Assembly (NCBI GenBank): GCA_029942545.1
Contig: GCA_029942545.1_4114.3
From: a phage
Reading direction: 5' to 3' (one strand)
Length of the DNA stretch: 32,788 nucleotides
Shown piece by piece: positions 1,325 through 3,764 of the stretch (position 1 is its first letter; each line of letters begins with the position of its first letter). The translations under genes were made by a program, and so were the position numbers. The notes beneath the pieces were generated by a model. It saw only the letters and a list, made by a program, of their open reading frames with translations. It did not search any database and was not told the origin of the DNA.

Positions 1325-1663
1325 ATGCTTGAGTTTTTTAATTCAGATACAATGATTAGTATTACTTTGATTTATCTGTTTGGTTTTTTCTTTTATCATG
1401 CACTGGTTGTAGTACTGTGGTATTTTAAAAAGAAAATTGTTTTTAAACTGTATCCAGTAAGGAATTCATCACTAGTTCTTTACACACTAGTTCAAGGTTT
1501 GTTTGCAATTGTTGGTCTTATGGCACACTTAATTTATTGTGCCAATCCTCACTTGAACTCAATCTCACAATATATTGTATTCTTTGGGTTGTTCATTTGG
1601 TTAGTTGTATACTTAATCCATCTCATTATTCATGGTAGAGATAAAATTCGCGGAGACTTCTAA
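1325..1663 (+). CDS. small membrane protein, paralog family member 1 of 7
   Basis: ORF track; about 3 hydrophobic helices, basic KKK loop after helix 1, basic C-tail; stop overlaps next start. Confidence 0.75.
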   Translation: MLEFFNSDTMISITLIYLFGFFFYHALVVVLWYFKKKIVFKLYPVRNSSLVLYTLVQGLFAIVGLMAHLIYCANPHLNSISQYIVFFGLFIWLVVYLIHLIIHGRDKIRGDF

Positions 1664-2010
1664 TGTTTGAAGCTTATCTTGAGTTTTTAAGGAGTAGTTC
1701 AGTTGCACATTCACTTGCAGGGATTATTCTAACAACTTATGTATCATTTTGGGTAGTTATGTTTCTAGGATGGTATTTTAAACGACAATTCTATAAACGT
1801 AATGGTGAAGATTTTATGAATTCTGCCATTAATCAATCGTTGTTTGCATCAACATTGATTGCATGTATTGTAGCAACACTCACAGGAAAGGTACTACCAG
1901 CTTTTTCCGCAGTTTACGGCACACTTGGGATGATATGTTTAACTTTTATATTGACCATTAAAATTTGTTGTGTTATGATTGAACTTCGAAATAAGATACC
2001 GGAGGAATGA
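1663..2010 (+). CDS. small membrane protein, paralog 2 of 7
   Basis: ORF track; same helix-basic loop-helix-helix layout; TAATG overlap with upstream gene. Confidence 0.75.
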   Translation: MFEAYLEFLRSSSVAHSLAGIILTTYVSFWVVMFLGWYFKRQFYKRNGEDFMNSAINQSLFASTLIACIVATLTGKVLPAFSAVYGTLGMICLTFILTIKICCVMIELRNKIPEE

Positions 2011-2345
2011 TGGAGTACTTTATTGATTTACTGCCGTGGTATATGAAAGTTAGTACCATGTACTATATTATTAGTGCTGGATTCTACTTTCTGATGTGGT
2101 TCTTTAAACGACCAATTTCAGTATTCATCGCTGATAACATGCTGCAATTAAAATTACACGCATGGTTTGGTATGGCGATGATTATGCCTATTATTCACTA
2201 CTCAATGATTAGTAGAGGTTTCCGTTCTAATGGTGAACCAATTGTATTAGTATTCTATTGGGGTTCAACTATTGCATATGTAAGTTTGTTGTTGTTCCCA
2301 GTCGTTCATAAGTTACGTGCTAAAGTTCCTGATGCGAGGTACTAA
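2007..2345 (+). CDS. small membrane protein, paralog 3 of 7
   Basis: ORF track; hydrophobic helices; 4-nt overlap with upstream gene. Confidence 0.75.
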   Translation: MMEYFIDLLPWYMKVSTMYYIISAGFYFLMWFFKRPISVFIADNMLQLKLHAWFGMAMIMPIIHYSMISRGFRSNGEPIVLVFYWGSTIAYVSLLLFPVVHKLRAKVPDARY

Positions 2346-2659
2346 TGGATATAGTAACATTGATTTACACGTTGTATTCATTCTATTTCATTATGTGTTG
2401 GGTTGGATTTTTATTTGTACTCAAGATGTTTGATTATGTTGAAAAACAGATAAAAGAATTTTGTATTCCTTTTATCGGTTCAACCATTATTAGTGTTTCT
2501 TGTGTGTATTTTTTGGTTTTTGATCCACCAGATAACACTGCAATGATTGACTTGATGTTACTACCAACAACTGTTACTTTTTTATGTAGTCTGATGCCGC
2601 CGATTAGCCGTGGACTAACAGAATTTAGACGCAATCAAAAGCGTAAACGAGGGATGTAA
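2345..2659 (+). CDS. small membrane protein, paralog 4 of 7
   Basis: ORF track; hydrophobic helices; C-terminal basic tail QKRKRG. Confidence 0.75.
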   Translation: MDIVTLIYTLYSFYFIMCWVGFLFVLKMFDYVEKQIKEFCIPFIGSTIISVSCVYFLVFDPPDNTAMIDLMLLPTTVTFLCSLMPPISRGLTEFRRNQKRKRGM

Positions 2660-3027
2660 TGGAAATTGCTCTTATTATCTTAACTGCTATGCTGTTTATT
2701 AGTACTGTGGTTATAATTGGTAAATTCTTTTGTGTATCATTTTTAGAAACGGTATACGATGAAATTGCTGATGATTATGAATTACAAGCCGGATTTTTCA
2801 TTACGTATTGGCTTAGTTTATTTTGTCTAGTCATTGCTTGGATTTTACATATCTTTAAATGGGGTATGGTAGACGGTGATCCTATTATGGCAATTATTGT
2901 TCTAGTGTTTGGTATCCTTGGTGGTGCAGTGCATAATCTAATGGTTATCTGGCAAACTGTTCAATATGTTTTGGTTCCCTATTTCGAAAAGATGCACAGT
3001 ACAATTAAAAAACGTAAACGAGGTTAG
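2659..3027 (+). CDS. small membrane protein, paralog 5 of 7
   Basis: ORF track; hydrophobic helices; C-terminal KKRKRG tail like paralog 4; start overlaps previous stop. Confidence 0.75.
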   Translation: MEIALIILTAMLFISTVVIIGKFFCVSFLETVYDEIADDYELQAGFFITYWLSLFCLVIAWILHIFKWGMVDGDPIMAIIVLVFGILGGAVHNLMVIWQTVQYVLVPYFEKMHSTIKKRKRG

Positions 3028-3028
3028 T

Positions 3029-3391
3029 ATGAACGGGATAGAATTATCTTTCGTTGGTCAATTACTAGTAATGGCGTATACATTTATCTTCTCACTGAAT
3101 GCATTCGTGTGCATTGGGAAGTACTTCCATAAGCGACCATTATCAAATATATATGATGTAATCCAAAAGAGATATAGTCCAGCATATACTGTGTTGGGTA
3201 CAGTATTCAATTTTGGTTTTATTGTATTAATAATTGGACTGTTCACATCCTCTTTGAATACAATAACCTTCGGTCTTATGATATGTTCATTGGTATTAGC
3301 CGTAATTATATGTTGTTTAGTACTGCACCTTGTGGTACTATTGTATATAAAGATCTCTGAAATCCACCAACGTTTGGGTATGAGGAAATAA
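3029..3391 (+). CDS. small membrane protein, paralog 6 of 7
   Basis: ORF track 2966..3391; start moved to ATG 3029 (MNGIEL) which follows AACGAGG SD and removes the 60-nt overlap with the upstream gene. Confidence 0.7.
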   Translation: MNGIELSFVGQLLVMAYTFIFSLNAFVCIGKYFHKRPLSNIYDVIQKRYSPAYTVLGTVFNFGFIVLIIGLFTSSLNTITFGLMICSLVLAVIICCLVLHLVVLLYIKISEIHQRLGMRK

Positions 3392-3392
3392 T

Positions 3393-3764
3393 ATGAGTTA
3401 CCGTGAGATATTTTCCATTATTTCAATTATTATGTTCAGTACTGGAACACTGGTATGGTTATTATACTTCTTCTGTATTAATCCAGTGTATAATATGTTA
3501 TGTAATATTAAATCAAGTGCCGGATATATCACTTTTATGGTCTTTATGGGATATTATTGTCTAAGCATTTTAGGTGTTGTTTTGGTTGTTATATTTGATG
3601 TGGGACCAAATAGTGATGGTATGGAAATACATGAATTAATAACCATGTTTGGATGTATGATACCAACAGCACTACTGTTTGTAGCTACTGGTAGTGGATT
3701 GATAAAATTATATAATTATTTAAAATCCATTCATAATTCCATTCATAATAAGCGTATGTCATAA
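3393..3764 (+). CDS. small membrane protein, paralog 7 of 7
   Basis: ORF track; hydrophobic helices; GAGG SD upstream. Confidence 0.75.
   Translation: MSYREIFSIISIIMFSTGTLVWLLYFFCINPVYNMLCNIKSSAGYITFMVFMGYYCLSILGVVLVVIFDVGPNSDGMEIHELITMFGCMIPTALLFVATGSGLIKLYNYLKSIHNSIHNKRMS

Follow-up and report, generated by a model that had tools for sequence, protein, structure and literature searches.

What do seven small genes encoding hydrophobic proteins, packed end to end in the genome of a jumbo phage, have to do with one another, and what could they be for? We address this question for the array M1-M7, which fills positions 1325-3764 of contig GCA_029942545.1_4114.3 (assembly GCA_029942545.1). The whole contig stretch of 32,788 nucleotides (nt) is referred to as the window. 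It belongs to an Asteriusvirus jumbo phage of the 121Q/PBECO4 type from E. coli, that is, to the Rak2-like phages. Over its first 6 kb it matches Escherichia phage vB_EcoM_E9.1 at 98.8%; for 121Q, PBECO4, slurp01 and further Asteriusvirus jumbo phages the figure is 96-98%. In GenBank all seven array genes are annotated as 'hypothetical protein'.

Layout of the seven genes

The array consists of seven plus-strand open reading frames (ORFs) of 104-123 amino acids (aa) occupying about 2.4 kb. They are listed with their subfamily (defined in the next section), their family in PHROGs and the ratio of nonsynonymous to synonymous substitution rates (dN/dS) against phage ph0011; TM1 is the first of three transmembrane (TM) helices, and E denotes the expectation value.

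1325-1663, plus strand: M1, 112 aa, subfamily A; W[YF]FK[KR] after TM1, C-terminal R.KI; phrog_19454 (E 2.6e-53); dN/dS 0.21
1663-2010, plus strand: M2, 115 aa, subfamily A; hub of the homology network; phrog_19046; dN/dS 0.33
2007-2345, plus strand: M3, 112 aa, subfamily A; lowest hydrophobicity of the seven; phrog_27396; dN/dS 0.36
2345-2659, plus strand: M4, 104 aa, subfamily B; CW[VI]GFLF..., C-terminal F[RH]..QK.KR; phrog_33258; dN/dS 0.32
2659-3027, plus strand: M5, 122 aa, subfamily B; IGKFFC..., C-terminal H..IK.RKRG; phrog_26405; dN/dS 0.13
3029-3391, plus strand: M6, 120 aa, subfamily B; IGKYFHKRP...; without a strong PHROG of its own; dN/dS 0.33
3393-3764, plus strand: M7, 123 aa, subfamily B; YFFCINPVY..., C-terminal IH..IHNKR; phrog_27618; dN/dS 0.21

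A preliminary description of this DNA had proposed seven consecutive ORFs of this size with stop/start overlaps, and both points hold, the former with the start of M6 set at 3029. The mechanical ORF of M6 begins at an upstream in-frame ATG at 2966 (141 aa). We placed the start at 3029 instead because a GAGG Shine-Dalgarno sequence precedes this ATG and because it is the annotated start in vB_EcoM_E9.1, 121Q, ph0011 and SHEFM2K. Three junctions read TAATG (M1/M2, M3/M4 and M4/M5) and one is an ATGA overlap (M2/M3); M5/M6 and M6/M7 are separated by 1-nt spacers. A Shine-Dalgarno sequence, GGAG or GAGG, is found 5-10 nt before each start within the preceding gene. Several C-terminal residues are thus encoded by the Shine-Dalgarno sequence of the next gene, as in AAA CGA GGG ATG TAA (K-R-G-M) and CCG GAG GAA TGA (P-E-E). 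M4 ends in KRKRGM and M5 in KKRKRG. The dN/dS values of 0.13-0.36 indicate purifying selection on each of the seven, which are consequently all functional coding genes.

One family with two main subfamilies

Within the window, similarity between the seven proteins is marginal: global identities are 15-30%, the best BLASTP E values 0.036-0.05 and shuffle z scores at most 4.4. Since such pairwise comparison is too weak to establish paralogy, profiles of orthologues were needed, and these were drawn from the syntenic arrays of 121Q, ph0011, SHEFM2K, JNE01, A4, RaK2 and PHA46. Single-linkage clustering of phmmer matches joined M1, M2 and M3 on the one hand and M5 and M6 on the other. When the orthogroup profiles were compared with hhalign, all seven fell into one connected, co-linear network with the following links:

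M2-M3: 97% probability, E 1e-10, 106 columns
M2-M4: 93% probability, E 3e-7, 94 columns
M5-M6: 94% probability, E 1e-7 (1.2e-7), 57 columns
M5-M7: 91% probability, E 1e-6 (1.2e-6), 108 columns
M4-M5: 82% probability, E 1e-5, 103 columns
M2-M6: 67% probability, E 5e-5, 91 columns
M1-M2: 60% probability, E 8e-5, 39 columns

Every reversed-profile control stayed below 3% probability. At the level of sequence profiles, M1-M7 are thus shown to be diverged tandem duplicates of one ancestral gene. This bears out the tandem paralogous family claimed in the preliminary description, which had named inconsistent topology and a lack of pairwise similarity as the marks of unrelated ORFs. The topology is consistent across the members (see below); pairwise similarity is marginal inside the window and significant once orthologue profiles are used.

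Subfamily A comprises M1-M3, with W[YF]FK[KR] after TM1 and a C-terminal LR.KIP. Subfamily B comprises M4-M7, with G(K)[FY]F after TM1 and a C-terminal [FIM]H...K.KR. Compared with each other, the two subfamily profiles match along 100 co-linear columns (93.5% probability, E 2.3e-7); both motifs align with their counterparts. A third subtype with the motif DY.[LF]G.[DN]KL.F closes the arrays of RaK2, PHA46 and one metagenomic contig.

Topology and predicted structure

A Kyte-Doolittle scan gave three hydrophobic segments in each of M1-M7, in M3 at a lower threshold only, and exactly three in 51 of 57 family members. In these 51 the summed charges are +25/-61 for the N-terminal tail, +162/-101 for loop 1, +26/-68 for loop 2 and +226/-70 for the C-terminal tail. 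With an acidic N-terminal tail and loop 2 and a basic loop 1 and C-terminal tail, the positive-inside rule predicts an N-out/C-in orientation.

The AlphaFold2 model of M5, built on a 58-sequence family alignment, reached a predicted local distance difference test (pLDDT) of 94.8 and a predicted template modelling score of 0.80, with helices at residues 2-21, 27-38, 40-66 and 76-121. The model of M3 (pLDDT 79; helices 2-34, 37-43, 45-69 and 77-106) has the same four-helix layout. In both models TM1 would be followed by a short helix in the cytoplasm, then by TM2, a loop in the periplasm and a long TM3 reaching into the cytoplasm. The array proteins are therefore predicted to be inner-membrane proteins of about 110 aa with a periplasmic N-terminus, three TM helices and a basic cytoplasmic tail that continues TM3. 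Three helices and a basic C-terminal tail had been proposed as common to all members, and the hydropathy scan, the charge distribution and the two models agree with this. Throughout the 58-sequence alignments, the cytoplasmic end of TM1 carries one invariant Phe.

Database searches

As the preliminary description had anticipated, the proteins match no family that could be named. Sequence searches of Pfam, NCBIfam, PADLOC and the PDB returned sub-threshold hydrophobic noise only; the PADLOC models gave chance-level matches (PycTM at E 0.026, PDC-M18B at E 0.26), and fold searches gave nothing specific. Against PHROGs, M1-M5 and M7 are full-length members of six families of 'unknown function' (E 1e-51 to 1e-70), and M2 also matches phrog_16874, labelled 'membrane protein', at E 7e-6. 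No study of the array genes came to light in a literature search covering Asteriusvirus, RaK2, phAPEC6 and NrdC.10.

Distribution and copy number

With either subfamily profile as query, word-seeded searches of 5.8 billion proteins yielded no more than 26 and 10 proteins, whose named sources are Asteriusvirus, Klebsiella jumbo phages or a contig of about 350 kb labelled 'E. coli' that is evidently phage. A hidden Markov model search of every protein among 1.84 billion cluster representatives gave 38 proteins at E <=1e-3; they are 56-127 aa long and, save two, match nearly end to end. As judged from these sequence searches, the three-helix family is confined to Rak2-like jumbo phages. M7 orthologues are found in the Klebsiella phages RaK2, K64-1 and Muenster at 39-40% identity.

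Relatives with readable context again stand in arrays, four such ORFs being found on one 1.5-kb contig. A comparison of copy number across related phages, suggested in the preliminary description, gave a range of 4-8:

PHA46: 4 copies
fHe-Yen9-04: 5 copies
this window, E9.1, PBECO4, A4 and the metagenome contig: 7 copies
121Q, ph0011, SHEFM2K, JNE01/Turkey5 and RaK2: 8 copies

The additional copy of 121Q, ph0011 and SHEFM2K is M1-like, with 50% identity to M1, and is absent from genomes about 98% identical, including this window. Other copies arose by duplication of M4 in JNE01 (copies 30% identical) and of M2 in RaK2 (42%), and in the metagenomic lineage the subtypes are interleaved in a different order. 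Apparent gene losses were also considered as evidence and set aside as weak. The M4 'frameshift' of 121Q is one extra T in a T-run; M6 of PBECO4 is intact and merely unannotated; the records of the Salmonella SD series look fragmented throughout.

Genomic context

The array directly follows an ATPase gene:

489-1259, plus strand: 256-aa AAA-type ATPase, homologue of T4/RB69 NrdC.10 (tblastn about 40% identity to T4-like nrdC.10; Pfam AAA-type matches mostly below threshold)

This arrangement recurs in every lineage examined, namely in the window, 121Q, PBECO4, JNE01, A4, RaK2, PHA46, the metagenome contig and fHe-Yen9-04. On the 16.5-kb metagenome contig, a gene for a 255-aa ATPase is accompanied by seven family members and by six RCC1/WD40_RLD genes in convergent orientation. 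In the Eneladusvirus Yersinia phage fHe-Yen9-04 the ATPase is followed by one member, a 260-aa insert and four more members. T4-like phages possess NrdC.10 with no membrane array adjoining. Since, in addition, the extra N-terminal part of T4-like NrdC.10 is soluble, a fused/split relation between the array and this protein was ruled out. Relatives in phi92 had been hinted at by 'Phi92_gp231/gp233' notes in the ph0011 record; the phi92 genes encode unrelated proteins of 121 and 75 aa, and the note is therefore an annotation artefact.

On the minus strand, and convergent with the membrane array, 4449-19906 is occupied by a run of about 13 paralogous genes (245-406 aa). In related phages these genes are annotated as RCC1-like 'regulator of chromosome condensation', and the metagenomic locus gives WD40_RLD/RCC1 Pfam matches. 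Of the Rak2-like lineages examined, all but Klebsiella phage RaK2 have such a convergent RCC1-repeat array downstream. In A4 (L007, 6636-7187) and fHe-Yen9-04 (L023, 8736-9356) a lipoprotein of about 180-205 aa (lipobox ...TGC or ...TAC) follows the membrane array; it may resemble E. coli YgiB (DUF1190). At this position the window has an unrelated 220-aa ORF.

Expression signals

Two elements flank the array:

1267-1295, plus strand: sigma-70-type promoter-like site TTGACA-17 nt-TACTAT, found by consensus scan between the ATPase gene and M1, which lie 65 nt apart
3769-3794, no strand assigned: hairpin with an 11-bp stem (AATCCAGTACT...AGTACTGGATT) directly after the stop codon of M7

The spacer of the promoter-like site contains the inverted repeat GTACTAC/GTAGTAC. 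121Q, PBECO4, SHEFM2K, ph0011 and JNE01 all share the -35 element TTGAC and the -10 element TAC(T/A)AT, spaced by 17 nt as in the window. Hexamers and spacing are thus kept across six phages, including JNE01, in which the flanking proteins are just 40-59% identical. The core of T4 late promoters is TATAAATA; in the 32.8-kb window this motif occurs 0 times on both strands against 7.7 ± 2.5 expected. Its absence suggests that the motif is actively avoided or that it serves in other parts of the genome. These signals suggest that the array may be transcribed early or in the middle phase by the host polymerase.

The hairpin at 3769-3794 could possibly mark the end of the transcription unit; no T-run follows it on the plus strand, so it is not a canonical intrinsic terminator. 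A stronger, near-consensus promoter-like site, TTGACT-18-TATAAT with TG, is located just upstream of the ATPase gene at 431-460. A G+C-rich, terminator-like hairpin with a T-run (424-451) overlaps this site, the -35 hexamer lying inside the stem.

Selection and mosaicism

Orthologues of the array proteins are 31-51% identical between Asteriusvirus lineages (JNE01, A4) and 29-39% identical to those of RaK2. Within orthogroups, mean entropy is lowest in the N-terminal tail, TM1, loop 1 and the C-terminal tail (1.06-1.22 bits); the highest values (1.53-1.73 bits) fall in TM2, the periplasmic loop and TM3. In M2 of SHEFM2K and PBECO4 a divergent patch is limited to the TM2-TM3 part. Its synonymous divergence (dS) is 0.15-0.22 as against about 0-0.12 in the neighbouring genes, which points to imported, recombined sequence rather than point-wise positive selection.

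The NrdC.10-like ATPase exists in two alleles within Asteriusvirus, one 96-100% identical to that of the window (121Q, SHEFM2K, A4) and one 58-59% identical (ph0011, JNE01). The ATPase alleles combine independently of the array alleles.

Possible functions of the array

We considered several explanations for a conserved array of this kind. The preliminary description had listed superinfection exclusion or immunity, a holin/antiholin relationship and membrane remodelling as candidate roles. Our tentative preference, held with somewhat less than even confidence, is that the array encodes early-expressed modular inner-membrane effectors for exclusion, host takeover or anti-defence. On balance we infer that such early modular effectors are to be favoured over a hetero-oligomeric complex, lysis control and toxin immunity. 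Host RNA polymerase would co-transcribe the seven genes early from the conserved sigma-70-type promoter, and M1-M7 would be translated as a coupled string. Each paralogue would be a separate small membrane effector. The anchor common to all copies would consist of TM1, the juxtamembrane motif around the invariant Phe and the basic tail, and the TM2-loop-TM3 hairpin, which varies more, would direct each copy to a membrane target of its own. Such targets could be host inner-membrane proteins required for the DNA entry of competitors, host-takeover targets or membrane-embedded defence effectors. Early co-expression is suggested by the conserved promoter-like site, by the absence of TATAAATA from the window and by the start/stop overlaps with Shine-Dalgarno sequences in the preceding genes. 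That the set is modular rather than fixed is suggested by the copy number of 4-8, the presence or absence of the M1-like copy, the duplications of M4 and M2 and the differing interleaving of subtypes. The recombined patch in M2 also speaks for this explanation.

Several observations weigh against this explanation. The proteins have no similarity to known exclusion, immunity or anti-defence proteins in PHROGs, Pfam, PADLOC or NCBIfam, and no annotation gives any member a function. Gene-wide positive selection, of which an arms-race role would predict some, was looked for by dN/dS and none was seen. The promoter of the array is putative, a conserved consensus match only. Divergent alleles are also found in the flanking ATPase (58-100% identity) and the 220-aa ORF (33-100%), so that the plasticity is not restricted to the array and the whole region appears as a recombination mosaic. 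As the Shine-Dalgarno sequence of the next gene encodes C-terminal residues (e.g. CGAGG as Arg-Gly), part of the conservation of the C-terminal tail may be a dual-coding constraint; M7 has a basic tail though no coupled gene lies downstream. Finally, six of the seven orthogroups are kept between Asteriusvirus and Alcyoneusvirus, and together with the tight coupling this fits a multi-subunit complex equally well.

Such a complex, a ring, channel or scaffold in the inner membrane, possibly working with the NrdC.10-like ATPase, would have arisen from a homo-oligomer by duplication and subfunctionalisation. We regard it as unlikely, although it is the main rival and a good deal can be said for it: translational coupling and overlaps favour balanced co-expression, the cytoplasmic-side motifs are common to all paralogues, the orthologues of M1-M5 and M7 are kept across genera at only 29-39% identity, every member is under purifying selection, and the ATPase gene directly precedes the array in every lineage examined. 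On the other hand, a defined assembly sits poorly with a copy number varying from 4 to 8, an M1-like copy that comes and goes among genomes about 98% identical and a subtype order that differs between lineages. Moreover, NrdC.10 is kept in T4-like phages without such an array, and start/stop overlaps are common in phage early gene strings and not specific to complexes. The bolder version, in which the paralogues form one ring or channel of up to seven or eight distinct subunits, perhaps driven or assembled by the ATPase, seems quite improbable. It would make the array a new phage membrane machine, for instance the missing hole-former or a conduit for the giant virion, whose subunit number would have grown by duplication in different lineages.

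Class I holins such as lambda S are small proteins with three TM helices, an N-out/C-in orientation and a charged C-terminal tail. The predicted features of the array proteins fit this description, which raises the question whether they are holins, antiholins or regulators of lysis timing. The RaK2 genome paper lists lysozymes and no T holin or RI antiholin (PMC3622015), which leaves room for such a role. Nevertheless, we consider it highly improbable. No holin family appeared among the Pfam and PHROG results at E up to 1, and no endolysin or spanin gene adjoins the array, whether in the window or at related loci, the neighbours being the ATPase, the 220-aa ORF and RCC1-repeat genes. The promoter is of the conserved sigma-70 type and the T4-type late core is absent from the window, and seven to eight co-expressed holin paralogues would be without precedent. 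In addition, Asteriusvirus fEgEco12 has an annotated holin in a later genome paper (PMC13070987), and its features under the M2 match are labelled 'hypothetical protein'. Protection of the inner membrane against pore-forming toxins of the colicin type, or against membrane-active factors of the phage itself, with one toxin per paralogue, is very improbable indeed. Immunity proteins to E1-type pore-forming colicins are three-helix inner-membrane proteins of about 100-115 aa. The predicted three-helix topology matches this format, and a diversified tandem set suits a one-toxin-one-immunity logic. However, no sequence or profile similarity to the colicin immunity families in Pfam was detected, no toxin gene adjoins the array, and there is no known reason for a virulent phage to hold such a panel.

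Other features of the window

In the window there are 143 occurrences of the palindrome AGTACT (12.9 ± 3.4 expected) and 33 of CAGTACTG (0.55 expected). The excess of AGTACT is common to every Rak2-like locus fetched, at about 2-6 per kb, including RaK2, PHA46, fHe-Yen9-04 and the metagenome contigs; it is not seen in T4-like RB69 (2 in 8.6 kb) or in phi92 (0 in 20.5 kb). AGTACT looks like a clade-wide, highly iterated palindrome, on which a literature search found no paper. Two further regions may be mentioned:

19991-23795, plus strand: second tight string of about 16 ORFs of 60-81 aa, broken by a 223-aa ORF (21611-22282)
23800-25740: about 1.9 kb without an ORF of at least 60 aa, with at least 10 copies of CAGTACTG

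The former could represent a further tandem family of small early proteins. The latter contains the 8-bp tandem repeat CTAGACGG twelve times (24866-24964) and GAATTTTGGGCGTA four times, and no tRNA or Rfam match was found in it. Near 24 kb the G+C content rises and the GC skew changes sign. This region could be an origin or a regulatory region.

Comparison with known systems

In this work seven families of 'hypothetical protein' were merged into one clade-specific membrane protein superfamily with a defined predicted topology, a confident structural model, a conserved gene context and a probable early promoter. The Rak2-like jumbo phages, among them 121Q, PBECO4, RaK2 and K64-1, are candidates for therapy, and more than 80% of their genes are without an assigned function. 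At about 2.4 kb, the array is a compact module on which to study how the inner membrane of the host is reworked by giant phages, how competitors are excluded or how lysis is controlled.

PHROGs treats the families as separate and unrelated, whereas here they appear as one superfamily that spans seven PHROGs in one conserved array. With class I holins (lambda S) the proteins share a length of about 105-125 aa, three predicted TM helices, the N-out/C-in orientation and a charged cytoplasmic C-terminal tail. They differ in lacking sequence or profile similarity, a lysis cassette context and a dual-start motif, and in having an early-type promoter and seven or more copies. Like T4 Imm and other superinfection-exclusion proteins, they are small phage-encoded inner-membrane proteins presumed to be made early from host-type promoters, as Imm is known to be; Imm, in contrast, has two TM segments, is a single gene and shows no sequence similarity to the array. 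The immunity proteins of E1-type pore-forming colicins are likewise three-helix inner-membrane proteins of comparable length, but no homology is detectable, no cognate toxin gene is present and the context is a phage instead of a plasmid.

A parallel in kind is found in the RCC1-repeat array and other lineage-specific tandem paralogues of jumbo phages, which also arose by duplication and divergence in a plastic region and are conserved across the Rak2-like clade. In RaK2 about 10% of the proteins are paralogues (PMC3622015). Jumbo phages commonly carry tandem paralogue families, so the array is not surprising in kind; it is of value chiefly as a clearly bounded target for experiments. It is set apart from these other families by its small integral membrane proteins and their tight start/stop coupling, and it constitutes a new, well-delimited family but not a new kind of system.

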